Positions 3,008 through 52,296 of a stretch of DNA of 64,000 nucleotides are shown here, one piece after another (position 1 is the first letter of the stretch; each line of letters starts with the position of its first letter). This DNA is from Centroscyllium fabricii (taxonomy: Eukaryota). The notes below the pieces were generated by a model. It ran no database searches, was not told where the DNA came from, and was given only the letters and a program-made list of their open reading frames with translations. Where the stretch lies: positions 94,116,001 through 94,180,000 of the forward strand of contig JBNRSN020000016.1 in the NCBI GenBank assembly GCA_051313645.2, read 5' to 3'. Position numbers and translations under genes: made by a program.

Positions 3008-4185
3008 ATGGGAACCATTTATACCCTCTCATTCCCGTCCTCAAATTTGGAGAAAGAGCAGCGGTGACAGCAGCAGAACCAGGCACAGCAGCAGCACTGA
3101 CAACAGGAGAGCCAACCTTCTCCTCACCCACCTGATGCTGCACAGGGCAGATGGCATCAGCGCAAGGCTGCACTTCAACACAGGAGATACCCCCAACACA
3201 GGGTTTACAGACAGAGGATGAGCTTCCTGAACATGAGTGAACAGCAGTGCCAAAGGAAGCGGGGACTTTCACGAGAGCTAGTCGCTGACATCTGCACAAT
3301 GCTGTACCATCACCTGCGGCCCAGAGAACGGGTGGACATTCCTTACCAGTGGCTGTCAAAGTCACCACCGTCCTCAACTTCTTTGCTTCAGCGTCCTTCC
3401 AGAGATCAGCAGCAGACATTAGCAGCATCTCCCAGTCGGCCGCACACAGTTGCATCATACAGGTTACCAATGCCCTGTTTGCCAAGTCGCACAATTATAT
3501 CCACTTCTCAACAGATGAGGCAAGTGTTACCGCACGGGCGGTTGGGTTTGCCAATCTGGCAGGCTTCCCAAAGGTGCAGGGCATCTTCGACTGCACACAT
3601 ATGGCCATCAGGGCACCCCATCACAACCCAGCTGTATTTGTGAACCGCAAAGGTTTCTACTCCCTTAACGTCCAGCTGGTGTGTAACTACAGGAAGAACA
3701 TTACGCATGTTTGCGGCAAGTTCCCTGGCAGTTGCCATGCCTTGTTCATCCTGCGGCAATCCACTGTGCCTCAGCTGTTCAATCCACCAACACAACTTCC
3801 TGGTTGGCTCCTTGGAGACAAGGGCTATCCCCTGAAGACGTGACTAATGACGTCGATGAGGAGGCCATCAAACTAAGCTGAGGAGCGCTACAATGCCAGC
3901 CATATTTCCACCAGAGGCATCATTGAGAAAATCACCGGCTTGCTCAAAATGTGATTCAGATGCCTGGACAGATCAGGTGGAGCCCTACAGTATGCACCAG
4001 CCAGAGTGTCCAGAATCATCATGGCCTGCTGTGTATTGCACAACATCGCACTGCAGCATGGCTTACCGCTGTCTGAGGAACAAGTGGCTCAATTCACAGC
4101 CTCCTCCTCCTCAGTTCCAGCAGTACGTGAGCACATTGCTGGCCGTAAGGCAAGGGATGCAATAATCCATGCTAGATTTGCTTAA
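3008..4185 (+). pseudogene. Harbinger (HARBI1-like, DDE) transposase, disrupted
   Basis: Motifs [44 protein letters not shown] and later [18 protein letters not shown]. In-frame stops (e.g. 3841, ~3875) and frameshifts. Confidence 0.88.
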
Positions 4186-8527: not shown

Positions 8528-9404
8528 GGGGGAAAAATTTGGTTGCTTAGCACCTCCAGTCAGCGCCTCCATGGGGCGCTATGAACTTAGTGCCCAAGCG
8601 CGGCGATTTTAGTGCCGCTCGCAAAATTGGCCAGACGTTTTGCGGCAGTGATAAACACTACCGCCGCGATCTCCTGCGCCTGCAGATCATGATGTCAGTT
8701 GAGCGTGCAACACCCCGTTAGCACCCCGGTCCGGATATTGAGTCGCACCCCCTGCTAGCAATGTCAGGTAGAGGGGAACATTTTGCAGTTGGGAGGGGCT
8801 GTGGAGCGCTATTTAAAGGCGGCCGCTTCCTGCCTTTTCTTGTCAGTGAAATGTTTACACCATGCATGCTGAGAGGGAGAGAGACGTCTGGAGAGATTCA
8901 ATGCTTTGTGAAGGAGTTTTGGTTCCTCAGCAGCACTTTGCAGGTTCATTTTTATTTCACCTTCATTCCAGCGGTTTAGAAGATACAATGGGGGCTGCAC
9001 GGACTCGGGGCGTCATCCTGCACCTGCAGAATCGGAGGTAGCAGAGGTGCAGAGAGAGTGGCAAACACTGCTAGAAGGAAGAGGACCAACAGGCCTCAGC
9101 ACAGGAGACCTTACCCTCCGAGGGTATTCACAGAGCAGTTCTCATACCTCCATTTGTCTAAGGAGCAGTATTTGCGCAGGCTGCACTTCAGCAAGGAGGT
9201 GGTAACGGAGCTCTGCCACCTGCTGCAACCAGATTTGCAGCCTCAACTCAGGACCAGGCTGTCTCTGTCAGTGGCAGTGAAGGGGACAGTGGCTCTGAAT
9301 TTTTATGCCAGTGGCTCCTTTCAAGCTTCTACTGGGGACAACGCTAATATCTCCCAGTTTGCTGTCCATTGTTGTATCCGGGAGATGACAATGCCCTGTA
9401 TAAT
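8528..9404 (+). mobile_element. 5' part of a second Harbinger family: TIR, promoter region and transposase N-terminus (8988-9404)
   Basis: Starts gggggaaaaatttgg. ORF RRPYPPRVF...SKEQYLRRLHFSKEVV...VALNFYASGSFQ is a Harbinger transposase N-terminus. Homologous to 61839-62846. Confidence 0.8.
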
Positions 9405-9710
9405 AGAATCATAGAATCCCTACAGTGCAGATAGAGGCTATTTCGGGCCATCGAGCCTGCATCAACACATATCCCACCCTATCCCCGTAACCCCACATAT
9501 TCAATCCCCCTAACACTAAGGGTCAATTTATCATGGCCAATCAACCTAACCCGCACATCTTTGGACTGTGGGAGGAAACCGGAGCACCCGGAGAAAACCC
9601 ACGCAGACACAGGGAGAATGTGCAAACTCCACACAGATAGTACCCGAGGCCGGATTTGAACCCAGGCCCCTAGTGCTGTGAGGCAACAGTGCTAACCACT
9701 ATGCCACCAC
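9405..9710 (-). mobile_element. tRNA-derived V-SINE (HE1-like)
   Basis: Reverse strand: tRNA-like head ggtggcatagtggttagcactg, V-domain tgtggagtttgcacattctcc...gggtgctccggtttcctcccac, CR1-like tail. Confidence 0.9.
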
Positions 9711-14450: not shown

Positions 14451-15252
14451 CTGCAAAAAATTCAATGACCTCACACAAGTCAAGGTCAGTGAATGCATTT
14501 TCAAATGCCGTATCCCACCAACTGCACCACTAGCCTCAGCAACTACACAATGCACCACCCCCATCACTCACCTACCAACAATCTCAGTCAGTCAGGACTC
14601 ATACCTCACATTCATAGCTTCACCTCACCCTCACACACTTAGCACTGCTGCAAGCTTCACAACTACATCGCACAGCTTTCACACACTGCCAGCTATTCAA
14701 CCATGACAGCCACATCACCCAAACAGATTGCACCACACTCACTGACACACTTCCCTCTCACTTGCAGGACAAGGCGGCGCCCAACCAAAGGCAGCATGAC
14801 CTAATTGGCGGGGGCCAGGCGTGCCTGCATGTCCTAACACTCATGGAGGAAACCGAGTTTGCCATCATTGAAACAGCCATTGGTGAGGCCATGGCCAGCG
14901 GTGGGACGGAAATGATAGAAGGTGACGGTATCCTCGTACTTAATCCTCCTTCTCATATCCCACTTCCCTTCATCCCACAACCTCTTCTGATTTACAAGCT
15001 GCAGATGGTGTAAGTATGCACCTCTTGCTTCCTGCCCCCACTGCCGCCCCACCCCCCTCACCTTACCCTGTGCCTTTCTCCTTTCAGATACCCAAGAACT
15101 GCAACCTGGCCAGGCAATGGAAGAGCAACAAGTGATGATGAAGAAACACCGTTACTCGATTTCGCACTCGCAGCCACCAGCTCAGATACTGACACTGTGC
15201 GTCATTTAGAGGATAGCATAGAGGTGGGATCTGCTCTTGGTGAGACATTGGG

Positions 15253-15571: not shown

Positions 15572-18509
15572 TCAAGTCCGGCGGGGTGAAGCGGTTCTGC
15601 CGAGGGTAGAATACGAAAGTCTGTCTGGTAGTCTGGTCTCTCTCTGCAACCGTCGCGGTGCCGGCGGCCATGCGGGATCCTCAGTCACTGTCGGTGGAGC
15701 GGCGATAGTCGGTTGAAGAATGTGCATCGGAGGATCCCGGGCCTCTGGCGTACCGTCTACAGGGGCTAGAGAAAAACGAGGTAACAAGGGTGCGTCGAGA
15801 GTTACGGTGGGGGGGCGGGGGTGGGGGGGTGGTGGTCTCAGGGGCACCAGAGGGTGCGAGGTCTCAGATGGAGACAGTGTCCTCCCGCCCGTCAGGGAAC
15901 ACCACGTAGGCATATTGGGAGTTGGCGTGGAGGAGCTGTACCCTGTCGACCAGGGGATCCATCTTATGGCCCCTCACGTGTCTCCGAAGCAGGACGGGCC
16001 CTGGGGACGACAACCACGATGGTAGCGAGGTCCCGGAGGTGGACTTCCTGGGGAAGGAAAACATCCGCTCGTGAGGGGTAGCATTGGTCGCGGTGCAGAG
16101 CAGCGACCGAATGGAGTGGAGTGCATCAGGGAGGACCTCCTGCCAACGCGAGGCCGGGAGGCCCCTAGACCGCAGGGCTAGGCTGATGGCCTTCCAGACC
16201 GGCCCGTTCTCCCGCTCAACTTGCCCGTTGCCCCAGGGGTTGTAACTGGTGGTCCTGCTTGTAGCAACTCCCTTGGAGAGCAGGTACTGGTGCAGCTCGT
16301 CGCTCATGAACGACGACCCCGGTCACTGTGGAGGAAGTTGGGGAGGCCGAACATGGTGAAGATGCTGTGCAGACACCTGATGGCAGTGGCCGCGGTCATG
16401 TCCGGGCAAGGGATGGCGAAGGGAAAACGAGAAAACTCATCGATGACGGTGAGGAAGTAAGTGTTTCGGTTCGTGGAGGGGAGGGGCCCTTTGAAGTCGA
16501 TGCTCAGGCGCTCAAAGGGGCGGGAGGCATTGATCAGGTTTGCTCTGTCTGGCCTGTAGAAGTGCGGTTTGCACTCGGCGCAGGTCGAGCAGCGCCTGGT
16601 CGCGTCCCGGACGTCCGAAACAGAGTAGGGCAGGTTGCGGGACATAACAAAATGGAAGAGGCGGGTGACTACCGGGTGGCAGAGGTCATTGTGGATGGAT
16701 TGCAATCTATCCACTTGTGCGCTGGCACAGGTTCCGCGTGAAAGAGCATCCGGGGGCTCATTGAGTTTACTGGGCCGGTACAAGATGTCGTAGTTATAGG
16801 TGGACAGCTCAATTCTCCACCTCTCATTTTTGATTTTACCCCGCTGTTTATTACTAAACATGAAAGCCACTGACCATTGGTCCGTGAGCAAGGTAAATCT
16901 TCTGCCGGCCAGGTAATGTCTCCAGTGCCGCACCGCTTCCACGATGGCCTGGGCCTCCTTTTCCACTGATGAGTGCCTGATTTCAGGGCCTTGGAGTGTG
17001 CGGGAAAAGGCGGCCACCGGTCTCCCCGCCTGGTTGAGGGTGGCGGCCAGGGCGAAGTCAGAGGCATCGCTTTCCACCTGGAACGGGGTGGATTCGTCCA
17101 CGGCGTGCATGGTCGCCCTGGCAATGTGTGACTTAATGGTGTCGAAGGCCACGCGAGCCTCGTTCTCCAGGGGGAAGGAGGTGGATTTAATGAGGGGGTG
17201 GGCTTTGTCAGCGTACTGCGGGACCCATTGGGCATAGTACGAAAAGAATCCCAGGCACCTTTTCAGGGACTTGGGACTGTGGGGGAGGGGGAGCTCCAGG
17301 AGGGGTCTCATGCGTTCGGGGTCAGGGCCGATGACGCCATTCTCCACGACACAACCCAGGATAGCAAGGCGGGTGGTGCGGAACGCGCATTTCTCCTTGT
17401 TATAGGTGAGGTTACGGAGCTGGGCGACCTGGAGGAACCTTGCCAGGTTGGCGTCGTGGTCCTGGATGTCATGGCCGCAGATGGTGACGTTGTCGAGGTA
17501 GGGGAAAGTAGCCAGCAGCCCGTTTTGGTCCACCATCCGGTCCATCTCCCGTTGGAAGACCGACACACCGTTGGTGACGCCAAACGGGACCCTGAGGAAG
17601 TGGTAAAGACGGCCGTTCGCCTCAAAGGCGGTGAACTGGAGGTCTTCGGGGCGGATGGGGAGCTGGTGATACGCCGACTTCAGGTCAATCGTAGAGAATA
17701 CCCGGTACTGCGCGATCTGGTTAACCAGGGGTATGCGTCCAGTTGAGGAAAGCGGTTGATCGTTTGGCTGTAGTCGATGACCAGGTGGGGCTTTGCGCCA
17801 GTCTTGACGACTACAACCTGAGCTCTCCAGGGGCTGTTGCTGGCCTCAATAGCCCCCTCCTTCATGAGGCGCTGAACCTCCGACTTGATGAAGAGTCAAT
17901 CCCCCATACTGTAGCGCCTGCTCTTGGTAGCTATGGGCTTGCAGTCGGGGGTGAGGTTAGCCAAAAGTGGAAGAGGGGCAACCTTGAGGGTCGAGAGGCT
18001 GAAAACCGTACGTGGCGGCTGATTTAAAAACTGCTGGCTACAGACCGTGAGGGGGGGAGGGGCCCACCATACTTCATGGTGACGCTATCGAGATGGCTCT
18101 GGAAATCTAGCCCGAGCAGAACAGCAGCGCAGAGGTGGGGGAGGATGAAGAGTTTAAACTGGTTATACACAGTACCCCGCACCGTTAACGTCAAAACGCA
18201 GGACCCACCGACCTCAGCCGTTTGTGCGTTAGAGGCCAGGGAGATCCGTTGGTGCGCCGGGAGTACCATGAGGGAGAGTCGCCGCACCGTGTCCAGGTGG
18301 ATAAAACTTTCGGTACTCCCCAAGTCAAATGGGCAGTTAACAGTGCGGGCGTTTACCTCGATGTCCATGGTCGATCTGGCGAGCTGGTGGGGCAGAGACT
18401 GGTCAAGGGTGATGGAGGCCAGCTGGGGCAGCAGTAGATCCTCATCGAAATTCCCCTGTGAAAGAGCGGGGAGGGCTGGCCGAGTTACTGCGGGCGGCGC
18501 CTGGATCAA
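15572..18509 (-). pseudogene. Gypsy pol (protease, RT, RNase H, integrase) split over several frames
   Basis: PR-like FDLGSTESF; SNSPWRAQVVVV; RT FPYLDNVTICG; RH ESDASDFAL; IN SIDFKGPLP, HSDRG, GNGQVERENG. Confidence 0.92.
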
Positions 18510-18669
18510 AGATGGCGGCGACCGGTTTAAAGATGGCGGCGCCCAGATTCCAGATGCGGCCTGTTCAAGATGGGCGCCTGATCCAAGATGGCCGCTGCCA
18601 GGATCGCCATGCGGTGGGGTAAGATGGCCGCTCCAGGGTGCACACGCGGCACTGCTAGGGTTGGGGGAG

Positions 18670-19425
18670 GATTTTGCCTTGCAGACGTTCGCGTAGTGGC
18701 CCTTCTTTCTGCAACTCGAGCACGTTGCGTTTCTCGCGGGGCAGCGCTGTCTGGGGTGTTTAGGGAGGCCGCAGAAGTAGCATTTCTGCGCCCGGGATGC
18801 CGCTGCGGACGTTAGCAGGGGAGGCGCGGCGGGGGTCGATCCTACCCATGATGGCTGCGCCCGCGATGTCCACTAGGTCGCCGGCTGCTCGAACGCCTCC
18901 AGATTCCGATGCGCTGCATTCAGCGATTGCGCCAGGGCTGTAGCTCTTTTTAAAATCGAGCCTGTCTTGCTCCAGGAGCCGCTGGCGGGTGTAAGTGGAG
19001 TTTATGCCCGCCACTATAGCATCGCGGATCAAGTCGTCCATGTTGGTCTGGGCCGTTACTTGCCGGCAGTGGCAGGCCTGCCCGAGTACCCGCAGCGCTG
19101 CAATAAAGTCTGTAACGGACTCGCCGGGCTGCTGCCTTCGGCTCAGCAGGAGGTGCCTAGCGTAGACCTCGTTGGTCAGGGCCGCGAATTGGTCCGTAAG
19201 GACTTGCAGGGCACTCACATAAGTGTTTTCGCCCTTAGTCAGCATATAGATGGCCGGGCTTACCCGAGACTGCAGGACTGTCAGCTTCCGGGCGTCTGTG
19301 GTGACGGTTTCGCTTGACTCTGCCAAAAACAATTCAAAGCACTTGAGCCAGTGCGCGAAAGTCCGTGCTGTGTCCGGCGACTGCGATTCTAACTCCAAAC
19401 GATCGGGCCTTAATATTTTGTCCAT
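18670..19425 (-). pseudogene. Gypsy gag (frameshifted before the zinc knuckles)
   Basis: ORF MDKILRPDRLEL...FAHWLKCF...RRQQPGESVTDF...IRDAIVAG; knuckles lie in another frame at ~18670-18785. Confidence 0.88.
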
Positions 19426-19449
19426 CGTTGAAAAATCTTGTCAATAAAT

Positions 19450-34520: not shown

Positions 34521-35748
34521 AAAATTAACTGAACTCAAGTTCCCCATTTAGGGTATTTTGTATTCATCCTGTTAATAAGCACCAACTCTGTAAATTTGCA
34601 ATTTCTGGAGAGTAAATTAAAAGATCATAACCACCATTTTTGCACCTACATGCAGAAGTTTACCTGTAATTATAATTTCCGCTTTCTAAAAGAACACATA
34701 CTTACAAATAACAAAAGAAAAGATGAGCATGCTACAGAACCATTCATATACGGATTATAAAGCAAGTCAAAGAGACATCTTCATGTGAAGTGTGTCAAAT
34801 TTGATCAAAAATATGTGGGAAACATTTCAATTGTAATTGCAATTCTATCTTCAGTTATTTCTATGCACAGCACTGTAATACACCAAGTCTGACAGTTTAC
34901 AAAAGCTATGCTGTATCTACAACATTCAGTTTTGTATAATTTACTGTAAATTATATGTAATGATCTATTTTCTTACAAAAAAGGAAATGTCAAAATCTGA
35001 CAAGCGGTTTATGCTTTCATTACAGCATGCAAGATATGTACAAACTATTATTTCAAAATTATGGAGAACTCTGAAAACAGAATTATTATTTACCAGTATT
35101 ATAAACAAAACTGTGTTTGCTCTTAAAATATACTTTGTACTTATATTGTACTTAGAAGATTGTAAACAAATAGGAATTTGTGTTGTAATACAATAGATAT
35201 TTTTAAATTATTGTTATTCATATTTAATAGATACGTTGTTAATGGCAATTACAAGAGTCACCTATAACTTTGCGGTGGCACTCATTCTAAGGCTGTAACT
35301 TAATACTTTTAAACCAAGATTTTAGTTTTTCATGTATACCTTTCTGCAGTATTGCGCAATGTAGCAGTGATGTTCAAAAGCTAAGAAACCTCACTTTAAT
35401 CTCACAAGAATAAACACATTCAAGGTATGTTCAGACTATTTTTGATATTTCTATTCTGCTGCAAGAATAATCGGACTCAACTCAAAACTGCACAAATAAG
35501 ATGCAAAACAATAAAGTTAGAGTTTTTTATTACATCAAATAAACTAACCAACCAGTAACAAACAAGAAATTAAATCTCCAAGGAATCTGTCAAAAAAATT
35601 GCAGTTAAGTGCTCAGATACTTGAGAACACTTAATGATTTTTTAAATTTTAAAAAGGAAGCACATACATTTCTCATGACAATACTTAGAATTTTTTATAC
35701 TGTAAATTTGCTAAAATAGGCAAATTGGTTTCAGTGGGGCAGCCTTAC

Positions 35749-35810
35749 CTCTTTTTCTATGATAAAACCAACTTTTGTAAGCACATCTTTGAAATGTTTT
35801 CAGTTTCTGT
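35749..35810 (-). pseudogene. sowah: Sowah coding exon 2 (62 nt, phase 1 to phase 0) with in-frame TGA
   Basis: ttttag|ACAGAAACTGAAAACATTTCAAAG...GAAAAAGAG|gtaagg. Spliced to exon 1 it reads DRN*KHFKDVLTKVGFIIEKE, matching the Sowah N-terminal R-x-x-FK-x-x-(V/L) segment as recalled. Confidence 0.72.
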
Positions 35811-37881
35811 CTAAAAGGATAAAAAATATATATATTCAGACAAGCTCATCCATGACAGTTTTAATTTTTTAAGTAAATTTGACAAAAATGCTTGTAATTT
35901 GTTTTATGGGAATTATGTTTCTATATAGTTCTGGTTAAATTATTTTGGTCTTACTTCTCCTCAAGTGCTTTGACGTTATCTTGTAAACACCTGGTGCCAG
36001 GGCTGGATGTTCTGGGCCTTAGACCATGTTGGTTTACAGTTTGATGTCCTAAGATGGAGCATCTCATCTTAGTGTGCAGTACTGTAGCACCCAGCTGAGA
36101 ACTGATGGAGCTCAAGCAGTGGCAAGCAAATGCAATTGACAGGCATAACTATCACTTGAACCTAGAACCATTCTTTCATGAGACAAATATTTTATTACCT
36201 GTGATAGGTTAATAGCTACTTCTACCACCACAGTGATGCCTGATCACTGTACATCTTTGTTATAGAATTCCTAGTTACAAATTTCAAGATGCACTTTACC
36301 CAAGTAAATGCAGATGAAAATACGTGTATGCTTACTGGGGGTGAAAGTTAGAATCAGTAAATGTTGCCATAAATTCTGTGCTTCTGCTTGAATCTTTTTG
36401 AACTATATCACTGGCACACTGCTATATATAAAGTATAAAGAAAAGAAATATAGACATGACCACTTCTAATTAGAAAACTACATGATTACAACTGTTGCAA
36501 TAATATTTGCTTGTTTTGCAACTAATTATAGACCTTTCTAAAAATAAATGTTACAGCAATACAAAAATACATCAAATATCTCGTACGATTTGTCTTACTT
36601 TTAATAGTGATTTCTTCTCCCTGTAACCATTTGAAAATGAAAGACACTGTCAAAATTAGCGAAACCTCAAAACAAGGGGCACTGTCTGGATACAGCATTT
36701 CATCACTAATTTGCATGACAATGTTATTTCCAGAAGTAGAATCCAGTCTACTTCTACAGTAAATAATAACCCACATTGCATTACACAGATTGTGACTTTG
36801 AAAATCTATAGAAGTAACATGCATTTTCTTAAGGCAAATACTATATACAGATATTGGTTTTCCTCTATAATCAAAATTGTCACAAAGAAATAAAATATAC
36901 AGATATACAAATTGCTATACTTAACAGCCACTTCCAATTTTAATTGTTGTCTTATTTTTATCTTGCAAAACCCACCTTACTAGATAGAACCTATGTGTTA
37001 ACCATACTAAATGTATGCATTCATTTTTCTGAAAATTCTTAGTGTGCCAGTGATGGTGCTGAAAGAAACATTTTTCAGGGCAGTTATAATTTAACAATTG
37101 AATATATACCGGTTACTATCCATTTTCAGAGTCAATGACAAATAATAATTCATATTTATAATAAAAAGATTATATCCTGTAAATGGCATATATTTACCAG
37201 GTATGTTTAAACGGTTAGTTTTAAAGATAAAATCTGATTTACACAACTACTGTTTCAAGATAGAAATTACAACATTTAGTTTGTTTTAGATGATGTATTA
37301 AATTGCTACATTGACAAAATAAATGCAACAAAAATAGTCCATATTATGTTTTGGTTACAAAGTTCATTCATTTCCATCAAGAAATATTTTGCAAGTATGA
37401 AAGTATAGAACGTACATCAGCATTTAATAGACACTTGCAACGGATTATTTTGATATAAAGGTTTCAGGAAAATAACATTTTATTTAGAAAATATACTGAT
37501 ACATTGTCAATGAATCTAAACGTCAACCAGGATTTTTTTAATTTTTGCTTTGTTTTCCGAAAGGTACATAAACCAGGCTATCCAGTGTTTAAACCTAACG
37601 CGGCACCGTCTGTTTATTCGGCGGTCGACAAAAAAGGTGCTGACGAGTGAGTGCCAGCTTCACCAAAGCAAACCTGCCGATCGCAATCAGTTTCAGGTCA
37701 GGCTTTTCAAATCAAGGAGGAAGTTTCCTTTGACGGCTGGGCCCCTGAGCGGGCGTGAAAAGGGGCAGCAGCGAAAGTCCCGGCTACTGAGAGCGTGCAT
37801 GTGTTTGAAGCCAGGCAGCACTGTTTACTGACCCTGTGCCGCAAGTAAAACTACACCTGCTTTCAATCCTCAACAGAATTA

Positions 37882-38023
37882 AAGAGGTCACACAACACCA
37901 GGTTATATTCCAACAACGCTCCGAAAGCTTGTGATTTCTAATCACGCTGTTGGACTATAACCTGGTGTTGTGTGACCTCTTACAATTGTCCACCCCAGCC
38001 CAACACCCGCACCTCCCCATCAT
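37882..38023. mobile_element. Palindromic Penelope-type element, reversed copy with centre deleted
   Basis: gtcacacaacaccaggttata...tataacctggtgttgtgtgac plus caccccagcccaacacccgcacctccccatcat. Confidence 0.75.
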
Positions 38024-38395
38024 GACCAGAATGATTTGGCTCTCCTTGTCTTCATGAAGAAATCTCTTTTCGCCGTGGCATTCCGTTACAACATTGTTAC
38101 TAAATCCGCGCACCCTCCCAACCAGAGAAAACTTTCAATGTGGGGAGTGAGGACGTTCACCGCATTCACCTTTAAAGAAAAAAAATAGCAAACACTCTCA
38201 GACGCTGGCACGGTGCAATGAATAATCCGCCCAGATCAGACATTTTCTAAATCGATTTTCTGACGTTAAGCAAAATTTTTTAAAGTTTCAAATATGCACC
38301 GGAAGACAAATCAATGGCTAAACGGCGCAGGGAGGATTTCAAAGCCCCGGGATCATCCCCAGGTCCTAAAATACACACAGCAGTCAGTGACTTAC

Positions 38396-38531
38396 CCCGC
38401 AGGTCTGGCGCTGCGTGGTGCAAGCCCGCTTTAAAGACGTTGACTAGTTCTGAATATTTTATCTTGCCCCCTCTGTGGTGAATGAGAGTTAAGATACAAT
38501 CCGCACTCAGCTCCGCCGCCGCCGAGGTCAT
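38396..38531 (-). pseudogene. sowah: Sowah (sosondowah ankyrin-repeat family) coding exon 1, N-terminal domain
   Basis: ATG at 38531; MTSAAAELSADCILTLIHHRGGKIKYSELVNVFKAGLHHAAPDLR resembles the Sowah N-terminus (EL(S/T)...GG(K/R)V.N..L...FK). Consensus donor GG|gtaagt; located beside Irx as in the known Irx-Sowah linkage. Confidence 0.78.
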
Positions 38532-39070
38532 CGCTGCCGTCTCCAAGGGTGACCACCGGGACTCCCCGCACCGCGCTTCCGGTCGCCCGACCGGCTGCCT
38601 TGACAACCGAAGCGGAAGTAGGTGGTGGGTGGGAGGGGGGGGGGGGGAAGCAGAGCGCGCTGGGCGGGGTTTCAGGTATGATTGACATCTCCCTCCTCAA
38701 AGCCGAACGCGCTGGGCGGGGTTTAAGGTATGATTGACATCTCCCCCCTCCCACACCCCAACTCCGACCCGACCATCCCGGCAGCAGCAGCGGCGTCTCC
38801 GCCACTGGTGGAAAGGCAATGCAAATGAGCAGCGAACTACCCAATCAAACGAGAGGCGGCCAGACGTCCCGGCTCGCGCAATCTCCCACTGCACTTCGGG
38901 ACTTGCAGTTCTATGCCGCGTCGGCCTCACGGGGCTGGACTACATTTCCCAGGATACCCCGCGCCACACAGGTACTCCTGTCACTCAAGGTTCCCAGGCG
39001 GTGATTAGCAGCGCGCTGCCGCCCTGAGAGCGGTGCTACCTGCGCACCGCTCAGGGCGATCCCTTTCGGT
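38532..39070 (-). promoter_or_regulatory. CpG-island promoter of Sowah
   Basis: CpG-rich; ETS-like gcggaagt (~38612); duplicated GC-box unit gcgctgggcggggttt.aggtatgattgacatctccc (38657-38745); octamer atgcaaat (~38819); ZNF143/Staf-like gactacatttccca (~38938). Confidence 0.65.
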
Positions 39071-41231
39071 TGGCTTCGTGTATGGTACAGGCGCACTAAA
39101 ATGTTTAAGGGATAGAAATAGAAAATATGGTGGTATAACGTATCATATGCAAACATCAAACGCATTTGAGTCCTATTTAAGGTGGCTCCGAGGCGCGGTT
39201 GACGAGCCCAAGAGCCAGTGCACCTGAAACAAATTTGCTGTGGAAAGTAGAAGCTGCATAATTGTAGGATATGATAAGAAAGTGCAGAAATTACAGTTTG
39301 ATCCATGAATAATTTTAAAACGCAGTTACATATTGCGTTTCGTAAAATCCAGAAATGCGTGAGCGATTTTTTTAAAAACTTCTTGTTAGTTCAAAGTACG
39401 TTTAGAAACGTTAGTAGAGTTAAGACATACACGTAGACAGAAGCACACGTTTATTGTCTGCAAAAGTGCTGCTTTGAAGAAATTTTAATACGCATATTTT
39501 AGCAATATACACATTTTGACAATTTTCTCTGCTTGCAAATAGTAGTGGTCATTCGCCTGTATAAATATAGCTTTACCCAAAGATGATTTCAGAAAGATGT
39601 AGAATTAAGCCTTTAATCCACGCAAAAAAAAGTAATTGAAAGTAACAAAAACGGATTATAAACAGATGAGAGCAAGAACTAACATCTCAATCAACCATTA
39701 ACATAGAATAATATTATCAGAGCACGGCATTGCACAGTAAAAGGACGTTATTATATTGAGGGGCTAAAGACAACATTCAACGCGCTGATTAATTTCGCAG
39801 GGCAAAAGACTTTGGAAACTATCGATTTACGAGATTGCCCGCTGAGATATGGGCTTGAGCAGAATAGCTGCTATAAGCAGACAAAGAGAATTAAATAAAC
39901 CGGAATATGTTCGTGTTGGGAAATATATCTGGTGGAATCAAAGGAGATTACATCCGTTGATCGGCAGGGATTTATCCCAGTTCATATGGTTTTAATCTGC
40001 TTTCGCTTCTACCCTTTTATGAGTTTTGGAGAGGGGATACTTCGTTTATTCGCTTATATCCACCAGTAAACACTCATTTTGAGCTTATAGTGTGCGAGAC
40101 GGCGAATCAGCTGGTATCTACAACAGCGTAAAGCGACACTCTATAAATTGCGAATGGTCCAAATAATTGGTGTTATTCGAGAAATATAAAAATGAACTAT
40201 TATAAAACGTTGCCATGGATGTATTGCTGAATCGATCTATACCCCTCCCCTCCCATTCTATTTTAAGAACAACGTTTTTCACACCTTTAAATAAGATTGT
40301 TTGGGGACAACCCCAATGAGGCGGCTCACCTCTGTCGAGCTAATAACCGTTAAATTGCAGAAACATATTTAGTGCTTGAAACGTCAGGTTGTTCAGGCAC
40401 TTTACATGGCTTTGCGATTAAATTAGGTTTGGATAACACAGGACAAAATGAAGTAGTCGTAATTTATATTTCAAATGCAAATAAGCGCTAAGCTGGTTGA
40501 AATCCATTGTGGGACGTGTAAAAAAAGCAAGTAAGGTGGTGTATTCGCTTTATGAATTGTAAATCCAAAAATCAATGTTAAATTAATAATTTAAATATCT
40601 CGGTTCCCCTCCCAATCAGCAATGTATGAAGATTTCCCTCAAACCGGCAATAACCTGGGTATGCCACTATAACATGGTGCATTATGTCAATATAATTTTT
40701 ACTTTTACATACAATTAAGTTTTATTTAGATTTAAAAGTAAATGTTATAAACTAGGAGAGTATTTTGTTTCTCTCTCATAATGGCAGATTAGTCACCTCT
40801 GGCCTCTTTCTAGATCTGACGAGGTGCCATCTTGAAAAATCGCTAAATGAAGGCTTCAGTCTAAATTGAAAGGCTCCAAATTGTATTTTTACACCAGTGT
40901 ATGAGATGAATATCAACACTTAGCCTATGTGATCTAAATATATACACAAAAGAGTTTCATTGTTGGACACTAGAGTCTAGAAATTATTGTTGACGATGTT
41001 GGCAGATAAACACTTAATCTGTTGGTCTGAGATTTTAACAGAGCTGTTAACCCATTTAAAATAACATGAATAAGTTTAGGCCTGCAACAAATTAGTCAAC
41101 TAATTATAAAAAAATGCTCCTCTGCCAATATCACCAACATTCATTTTTAGGCTCATTGTGAAGAGATCTTGCAATTTAGTGTCAACTTAGATTTCTCTGT
41201 TCCACTGGTCCAAGGCTAAAGTTAAAGTATT

Positions 41232-50222: not shown

Positions 50223-50459
50223 ATGTCTTATCCTCAGGGCTACTTGTATCAACCGTCAGCGTCTTTGGCTCTTTACTCGTGTCCAGCGTACAGCACCAGC
50301 GTCATATCGGGACCCAGGACGGATGAACTTGGGAGATCTTCTTCGGGATCTGCCTTCAGCCCGTACGCCGGATCTACAGCGTTTACAGCCCCTTCCCCAG
50401 GCTACAACAGCCACCTCCAGTACGGCACAGACCCGACCGCTGCCTTCACTTCGTACGTG
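50223..50459 (+). CDS. irx5: Iroquois homeobox 5, coding exon 1 (79 codons)
   Basis: [68 protein letters not shown] matches the vertebrate IRX5 N-terminus; donor GTG|gtaagt. Confidence 0.97.
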
Positions 50460-50820
50460 GTAAGTTCAGTTTTTCAGACACCATTATAATGCATTCATAA
50501 CTATTGCTGAATACAATGGTGCCTCTTTGAGCTGGTCTCTGAAAAGATCCCATGTCTCTCTTTACAAACTTTCCAGCCGCCCCCAGTCTGTTATTTGAAT
50601 GCAATTTGATTCTTGTTAAGAACAACTTTGGTAAAAATTGATTTTTTTAAATGAAGAAAAAACAGGCTTGACTTTATTGCAGTCTTCAAAAGCTCACAGC
50701 TTTGCATTCAGCTGTTTGCATTTAAAAAAAACCAATATATTATTTCACTAGGTAAAAGGATTTACAGCTGAATGCGTTTGGTACAAAACGCGATTTTGAC
50801 GGGTGTTTGTTGTGTCTCAG

Positions 50821-51226
50821 GGTTCTCCCTATGATCACTCGACGGGAATGGCTGGATCTATAGGATATCACCCGTACGCCGCTCCTCTCGGCTCTTATCC
50901 GTATGGTGACCCCGCTTACCGAAAAAATGCCACCAGAGATGCCACTGCCACCCTCAAAGCCTGGCTCAGCGAGCACAGAAAGAACCCTTACCCCACTAAA
51001 GGCGAGAAGATCATGCTGGCTATCATCACCAAAATGACTCTGACTCAAGTGTCCACCTGGTTCGCTAACGCCAGGAGGAGGTTGAAGAAGGAGAATAAAA
51101 TGACCTGGACCCCGAGAAATAGGAGCGAAGACGAGGAGGAAGAAGAGAACATAGATCTGGAGAAAAACGACGACGACGAGCCGCAGAAATCTTTGGAAAA
51201 GGAGAACACGTCGGAAACAGAGTCAG
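50821..51226 (+). CDS. irx5: Irx5 exon 2 (TALE homeodomain and acidic region)
   Basis: tctcag|GSPYDH...[63 protein letters not shown]; donor CAG|gtagga (phase 1). Confidence 0.97.
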
Positions 51227-51577
51227 GTAGGAAAACAATGAATATTTTAGTGAAATCATTTTCAATAAGGGCGCCGAGTTGATTGTGCTTTATTATTTAT
51301 AAAGCACACATATGCAAATAACACACTGATTTTCGTTTGAATTGTAATTTTCGCTACACGTGTAGTTAAGAGATGTTTTTGAAAATGCAATGCTGTAAAA
51401 TCCATAAACACTGTCGGGAAGTAACAACATTTAGGTTGAATCAAGCAATTGGTATATCCCATAATTTTGAGTGCCCTATAATAATAAAGGTAATTTGATT
51501 ATAATTAACATGTTTGGATTTTTTTTGGAATAGAATAAGTGATTATTTTTTTTCTCTTTTTCAACTGATTGAAACAG

Positions 51578-52296
51578 GGACTCAGAAAGCGAATATAGTA
51601 GAAATCGCCTGTGAAATATTTGAGGAGCAGGATCCGAGTAAAGAAAGTGGGCAGATTCTGAGCGATTCGGAGTTAAAAGACGCCGAGGAAAGAGAGACCA
51701 TCCACTCTCCCAAAGCCACGACTTCGTCCCTGGTTGTGCCTCACGGAACCGAGCTCTTGCGTGAAAGCACCGACTCGGAATTGGAAACTGCACATACAAA
51801 CCTAGCTCACAGCCTTCCCAGCAACACAGTGAACTGCAGTGTGACTTCGGTCATCCACTCCCCGCCAGCGGCCAGCTCCAAACCCAAACTCTGGTCGCTG
51901 GCAGAAATCGCCACTTCGGACAAGTCGAAGGAACAGAGCGAGCAGCCGCCGAGTGGGTGCCCGGGTCAAGGCTGCACCGTGTCGGCCAGCGCCTCGTCGC
52001 CGTCCCGTTCCCCTTGCCCTTACCCGAACAGTGCAGTGCTGGGCCGGCCTCTCTACTACACCTCGCCCTTCTACACCGGCTACACGAACTATGGCAGCTT
52101 CGGCCACCTGCACAGCCACCATGGAGGCAGCAGCACAACACACTTCACTTCCAATGGATTAAGTCAGACTGTCTTAAGCAGAGCAGAGGCTCTGGTCAAA
52201 CTCTGTCCAGAAACTAAAACAAAGAACCCGCCACAAATAGATCATTGCAAGGACACACCGTCTTATGATTTGAAGAAAGGTATGTCGAACATTTAA
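51578..52296 (+). CDS. irx5: Irx5 exon 3 (IRO box, C-terminus); spliced protein 453 aa
   Basis: Polypyrimidine tract plus aacag acceptor in phase 1; IRO box KPKLWSLAEIATS; RPLYYTSPFYTGYTNYGSFGHL; ends LKKGMSNI*. Confidence 0.95.

Follow-up and report, generated by a model that had tools for sequence, protein, structure and literature searches.

Structure and identity of the gene

The window, meaning the whole 64,000-nt stretch that was analysed (Centroscyllium fabricii, contig JBNRSN020000016.1, positions 94,116,001 to 94,180,000 of the forward strand), contains the first two exons of a Sowah gene on the minus strand and an Irx homeobox gene on the plus strand. Contigs from four runs were compared with it over positions 35500-38800, namely X3 (organism A), X5 and X11 (organism B, different samples) and X10 (organism C). 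The features are as follows, in window positions unless C667 is given.

38396..38531, minus strand: Sowah exon 1, 136 nt (45 codons plus 1 nt), with the ATG start, the beginning of the N-terminal domain and donor GG/GTAAGT
35811..38395, minus strand: Sowah intron 1, 2585 nt, GT-AG, phase 1, absent from the X10 and X11 contigs
35749..35810, minus strand: Sowah exon 2, 62 nt, acceptor ...CCTTTTAG, donor GAG/GTAAGG
35800..35802, minus strand: in-frame TGA at Sowah codon 49, in exon 2, next codon AAA; AGA (Arg) in 4/4 runs compared
C667 94041475 down to 93387894, minus strand: Sowah exons 3-10, left of the window
38001..39400, no strand: CpG-rich stretch with exon 1 and the likely promoter, CpG observed/expected 0.77-1.2, GC 0.61-0.63 at 38401-39100
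38648..38750, no strand: tandem duplication of 52 bp immediately before exon 1, within what is likely the Sowah promoter, also seen in X3, likely the same species
50223..52296, plus strand: Irx homeobox gene (Homeobox_KN E 1e-18), head-to-head with Sowah

The two minus-strand exons, their splice sites and the TGA are present as an earlier, sequence-only reading of the window had described them. Joined in phase 1, exons 1 and 2 translate from the window as ...PDLR-DRN(stop)KHFKDVLTKVGFIIEKE. The whole gene comprises 10 exons on the minus strand and extends over 766.6 kb (C667:94154531 to 93387894). The exons were located by searches of the shark's own genome with orthologue proteins and by a scan of 170 kb of intron sequence; five residues that the longest Callorhinchus isoform has between exons 6 and 7, and that other isoforms lack, lay outside this search. 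All nine introns are GT-AG with consistent phases, and the 406-codon frame is free of frameshifts, with internal TGA codons at codon 49 (exon 2) and codon 115 (exon 3). Exon 3 (255 nt, phase 0-0) lies 110 kb away, outside the window. Exons 4-10 (765 nt) carry neither stops nor frameshifts, both stops falling within the first 453 of 1218 nt.

Exon 6 carries the LDPLE-x-x-W motif with ankyrin repeats after it, as expected of the SOWAH family, and exons 7 and 8 score 28.9 and 30.6 bits against a Pfam Ank cut-off of 21.1. The ankyrin exons were thus found to the left of the window, where the sequence-only reading had proposed that they be sought. That they might already be gone was considered and rejected, all ten exons being present. 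The one relative of exon 1 among 10 candidate proteins is Heptranchias perlo XP_067853670.1 (257 aa, 89% identity, E 7e-15). This protein has a precomputed PF25877 domain, which we take to be the SOWAH winged helix, so the N-terminal SOWAH domain is shared. Neither exon 1 or 2 nor the Heptranchias protein gave a match to a Pfam profile set that lacks PF25877. The Heptranchias N-terminus also matches two intronless Sowah open reading frames of the shark genome (E 3e-4 and 0.6 genome-wide).

With the Heptranchias protein as query, 13 of 782 candidates matched, including Callorhinchus SOWAHC-like isoforms, gar, bowfin, teleost and turtle proteins. In a tree of the ankyrin core (13 rows) the gene clusters with Heptranchias, Callorhinchus, gar, bowfin and teleosts, while four intronless copies stand separate with support 100/99; the tree leaves out a second intron-containing paralogue described below, four of its rows fill less than half of the columns, and the other species count as intron-containing by label only. 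The gene is therefore an intron-containing Sowah, multi-exon, located between Irx genes and set apart from the intronless retrocopies, in agreement with the sequence-only reading, which had placed such a gene beside Irx5. By similarity and tree, its orthologues include Callorhinchus milii SOWAHC-like LOC103176098 (XP_007887671.1; 44-92% identity per exon) and the Heptranchias protein (92% identity over exon 3), and both have Arg and Trp where the shark gene has stops. The Heptranchias gene model stops after exon 6, short of the ankyrin exons; the Heptranchias, gar and bowfin models all terminate after exon 6 or 7.

At the 5' end, the RNA-type contigs extend to 38538 and 38550, inside the CpG-rich stretch. 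In the DNA contig of organism B, 79 bp are missing at 38648-38750, and the tandem duplication is absent as such there.

Irx neighbourhood and Sowah paralogues

Irx homeoboxes are found on C667 at 92.85 Mb (minus), 94.17 Mb (plus, in the window) and 95.64 Mb (plus). Sowah occupies the gap between the first two, its start codon 11.7 kb from that of the window's Irx. Three FN2 exons are located at 96.57-96.59 Mb, beyond the third Irx. MMP2 adjoins the IrxB cluster, and the order minus, plus, plus together with the FN2 exons fits the IrxB (Irx3/5/6)-MMP2 layout; Irx3, Irx5 and Irx6 are provisional names. The window's Irx is presumably Irx5, from its N-terminal sequence and the layout of the cluster, and the gene on the other side of Sowah is Irx3-like. 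An Atlas search with exon 1 of the window's Irx yielded no Irx name, the matches being weak Hox-fragment clusters.

Elsewhere in the genome there are four intronless Sowah open reading frames (670, 635, 766 and 361 aa, counted from their first Met). A second intron-containing Sowah was noted on the plus strand at C1266:198860285-199043580. It lies upstream of an isolated Irx (199.18 Mb), and three FN2 exons are found on the same contig at 198.06 Mb. Four exons of this paralogue were seen, all of them open, and the place and phase of its intron 1 equal those of the window's gene. At the other three-gene Irx cluster, C933:258.9-266.2 Mb, no Sowah exon match was obtained, one of the searches having been stricter in its first step.

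Repetitive and putative mobile elements within the introns

Several repetitive sequences lie in the Sowah introns. Intron 1 contains a very high-copy short repeat at 37880-38025. Two pieces, 37880-38097 and 38182-38284, are missing from the DNA contig of organism B and are thus lineage-specific. Within intron 2, positions 16304-19440 (minus) hold gag and pol frames resembling an LTR retrotransposon, with reverse transcriptase, RNase H and integrase motifs recognized by eye, and a further stretch that resembles a copy of it is located in intron 4. The frames at 3289-3843, 8980-9414 and 14618-15013 resemble what we take to be a Harbinger-type transposase, and several CR1-like reverse transcriptase pieces lie near them.

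Two in-frame stops

At plus-strand position 35802 all four runs compared have T, so that the codon in exon 2 is AGA (Arg). Arg is also found at this position in Heptranchias (DRNRKHFK), Callorhinchus, gar and bowfin, which bears out the residue that the sequence-only reading had expected there. The change in exon 2 is AGA>TGA, an A>T transversion, and it is not fixed, since AGA is present in X3, whose identity to the window is 99.8% (5 other letter differences over about 3.2 kb). From this identity X3 is likely of the same species as the window, and it is the one same-species run in which the exon-2 codon was compared.

The stop in exon 3 is of wider occurrence. Here, at C667:94041329, TGG has become TGA in the assembly and in three of three same-species runs, X1 and X2, both from sample S1, and X3, from sample S2; every one of them has a single contig across a 2.1-kb stretch around the exon. 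X11, from organism B, reads TGG (Trp), and Trp is also found in the orthologues. Contigs show one allele and collapse heterozygous sites, as is seen at L046:1888, where X1 and X2 disagree despite their common sample; a TGG allele may thus be masked, the scope being two samples and the assembly. All three runs differ from the assembly at L046:1142, and any of them may be the assembly source. The exon-3 stop is likely fixed or nearly so in the species. As X3 has the exon-3 TGA without the exon-2 TGA, exon 3 would have been hit before exon 2, judging from unphased sites.

Transcripts

The sequence-only reading had named the splice junction 38396>35810 as a check, and two related organisms show it in their RNA-type contigs. 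The exact joint of 35810 with 38396 occurs in both RNA-type runs (X10 and X11) and in neither of the two other runs. X10 and X11 were guessed to be RNA, and X11 is RNA-like in that it covers exon 3 but not its flanks. Its 1169-nt contig contains exons 1, 2 and 3 and then continues into a different exon. The first 30 letters of this tail match once, exactly, at C667:94002382 (minus), within intron 3. The alternative exon has a canonical acceptor, lies 38.8 kb after exon 3, is unannotated and in this genome reaches a stop after ten codons. Its first 220 nt have no other match within the 0.72 Mb searched, and repeat sequence follows. The assembled transcript of organism B may thus already be short, although an exon 3-4 joint may have been missed, as contigs drop rarer forms.

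Age of the probable loss and the preferred explanation

In comparison with organism B, exons 1-3 show 6 differences in 460 sites, the two stops among them, whereas the intron DNA around exon 2 shows 101 in 2319 (Fisher p 0.0008; the exon count is from X11 and the intron count from X5, different samples of organism B). This lower divergence argues that constraint acted on the exons during most of the period after organism B had diverged. Exons 6-8 retain 90-92% identity to Callorhinchus. The shark gene has 13 lineage-specific amino-acid changes and Heptranchias has 8 (p 0.38), or 12 and 7 once two misaligned tail columns are left out. The conservation of the exons and the non-significant rate test suggest either that the loss happened recently or that the part downstream of the stops still serves a function.

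The explanation we prefer, with a probability of about 0.72, is that this Sowah is a recently inactivated pseudogene which has kept all ten exons and carries two in-frame TGA codons. The sequence-only reading had taken the gene to be apparently on its way to being lost, and it does look disabled, with two premature TGA codons in the assembly. However, the event that it had held responsible, the stop in exon 2, does not fit that role, being absent from the same-species run X3, while the more widely shared stop is in exon 3. The Trp>stop change in exon 3 would have come first and become fixed or nearly so, and the Arg>stop change in exon 2 would be a later allele drifting on an already dead gene. 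Translation would halt at codon 115, or at codon 49 on the window's allele, before the ankyrin repeats. By the usual rule such stops predict mRNA decay, although stops near the start can escape it, and a full-length mRNA would be a predicted target of nonsense-mediated decay, the stops lying 108 nt (codon 115) and 51 nt (codon 49) before the next junction with further junctions downstream. The loss may have been tolerated because other Sowah genes, four without introns and one with them, likely provide redundancy. The locus itself may persist since its introns likely hold Irx enhancers, by analogy with Sowah introns that contain Irx enhancers in fly and other animals, as reported in passages of PMC5803294, PMC8793726 and PMC12311624.

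Alternative explanations

It is somewhat unlikely, though a serious alternative, that the exon-2 TGA is an assembly error, which would affect that stop only and leave the exon-3 stop standing. The TGA is found in none of the four runs compared, and X3, which departs from the window at four sites in 35500-37907, agrees with organism B at every one of them, so that the window is the odd one out. The change is, however, a substitution and not a homopolymer-length slip, and the species is polymorphic at such a level. The share of sampled words is 0.96 for X1 and X2 and 0.92 for X3, which places X1 and X2 about one site and X3 four to five sites off the window, provided that the repeat gap near 37900 costs equal words; this rough measure fits S1 sharing most of the window's letters there and favours a real allele, although four differences without the gap would also give 0.96. 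All considered, the exon-2 TGA is probably a real allele.

A second alternative, and a distinctly improbable one, is that a shortened ankyrin protein is still made and that the N-terminal part alone is being lost, whether by skipping of exon 3 on AGA alleles or by a start at Met156 or Met160 in exon 4. The confinement of both stops to the first 453 of 1218 nt, the open exons 4-10 and the in-frame Met codons at 156 and 160 are all compatible with such a product. Exon 3 is symmetric (255 nt, phase 0-0), and skipping it would preserve the frame. Four more ortholog models, including eel, conger and Denticeps, match from residue 127-141 onward only (two are labelled partial), and the ankyrin-core branch of the gene is very short (0.017). 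Such conservation is likewise expected of a recent loss, however; no such transcript was seen, and the organism B contig includes exon 3. Changes at conserved positions, defined as those shared by Heptranchias, Callorhinchus, gar and bowfin, occur downstream as well (L206C, T210A, K256Q), with 4 against 1 in Heptranchias, which is not significant.

Both stops might instead be segregating null alleles, with intact copies persisting and the gene not yet lost. The exon-2 stop is demonstrably not fixed, samples are few and contigs hide second alleles. The presence of the exon-3 TGA in the assembly and in 3/3 runs from two samples makes this very unlikely, and X3, with AGA in exon 2 and TGA in exon 3, fits an older hit in exon 3.

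Recoding of both UGA codons, by read-through or as selenocysteine, with a full-length protein being made, is hardly credible. Both stops are indeed TGA and the remaining frame is whole, but the orthologues have Arg and Trp, not Cys. The read-through motif is UGA-CUAG, and the contexts here are TGA-AAA and TGA-TTT; the sequence-only reading was right that TGA-AAA is not a classic context. An Rfam search of some 7.9 kb following the last exon found no SECIS element, two chance-level matches being the only hits. A selenoprotein or read-through gene was accordingly rejected as a candidate. The CGA>TGA deamination in exon 2 by which the sequence-only reading had the gene disabled, and for which a comparison of CGA and TGA across chondrichthyans had been proposed, is compatible with Arg in Heptranchias, Callorhinchus, gar and bowfin but is rejected, as AGA in 4/4 runs from three organisms rules out a CpG origin, the stop is absent from the same-species run and the exon-3 stop is more widely shared.

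Relation to the Irx-Sowah block and to CRNDE

Maeso et al. 2012 reportedly described the Irx-Sowah block and its loss in tetrapods. Passages in PMC5803294, PMC8793726, PMC12311624 and PMC3342872 also make known this genomic regulatory block and the tetrapod loss. The shark locus is alike in that an intron-rich Sowah fills the gap between Irx genes, with coding loss beside Irx and intronless copies elsewhere. It differs from the tetrapod loss in occurring in a shark and at a very early stage, all ten exons and splice sites being intact, and in that a second intron-containing Sowah is kept beside another Irx (C1266). The shark case is thus a known process, the dismantling of the Irx-Sowah block, in a new lineage. 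Our literature search turned up neither a Sowah loss reported for sharks nor a link between CRNDE and Sowah, though Maeso et al. 2012 may cover such remnants. In Hezroni et al. 2017 (PMC5577775) the terms 'CRNDE' and 'sowah' are absent from the main text and four supplementary files.

Six proteins in turtles, birds, coelacanth and lungfish were noted as remnants of this same Sowah paralogue. A query with a turtle remnant gave 22 proteins, and the 10 looked up included coelacanth, lungfish, sturgeon (two, flagged unverified), penguin and kiskadee. The coelacanth models span exons 1-3 only, and the turtle and bird models keep exon-3 remnants. In the two bird models the match is lost at residue 134, at the A-run of exon 3, which looks like a frameshift. 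Two protein searches (141-716 aa covered) gave no other shark or ray orthologue, which is weak evidence given word seeding and annotation.

CRNDE is described in portions of PMC6868825 as a tetrapod long non-coding RNA divergent from IRX5, spliced, multi-exon and mainly non-coding. It lies on the same side and strand relative to IRX5 as the shark Sowah. CRNDE begins 1.2-2 kb from IRX5, as against 11.7 kb between start codons in the shark, and the likeness is one of position only. We tentatively suggest, while thinking it doubtful on balance, that the locus may be a bystander gene becoming a long non-coding RNA, in which the promoter and exons 1-3 would stay transcribed and splice to a short unrelated exon while the coding function dies, with CRNDE as a possible end point and a Sowah fossil. 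This analogy draws on the organism B transcript, which leaves exon 3 for a new exon, on the coelacanth models restricted to exons 1-3 and on the exon-3 remnants of turtles and birds. The CRNDE peptide is primate-only according to a section of Szafron et al. 2015 (PMC4433331) and so lends no support to a Sowah origin.

The exon-2 codon first flagged is, taken alone, a minor allele or an error. If the preferred reading is true, the loss of the Irx-linked Sowah has just begun in this shark, and such loss recurs beyond the ancient tetrapod event. A close relative with open exons 1-3, set beside one shared and one segregating stop, would then offer a comparison at an early stage. The first steps of the loss would be open to study, namely which part goes first, whether transcription is kept and whether the intronic enhancers are left unaffected.
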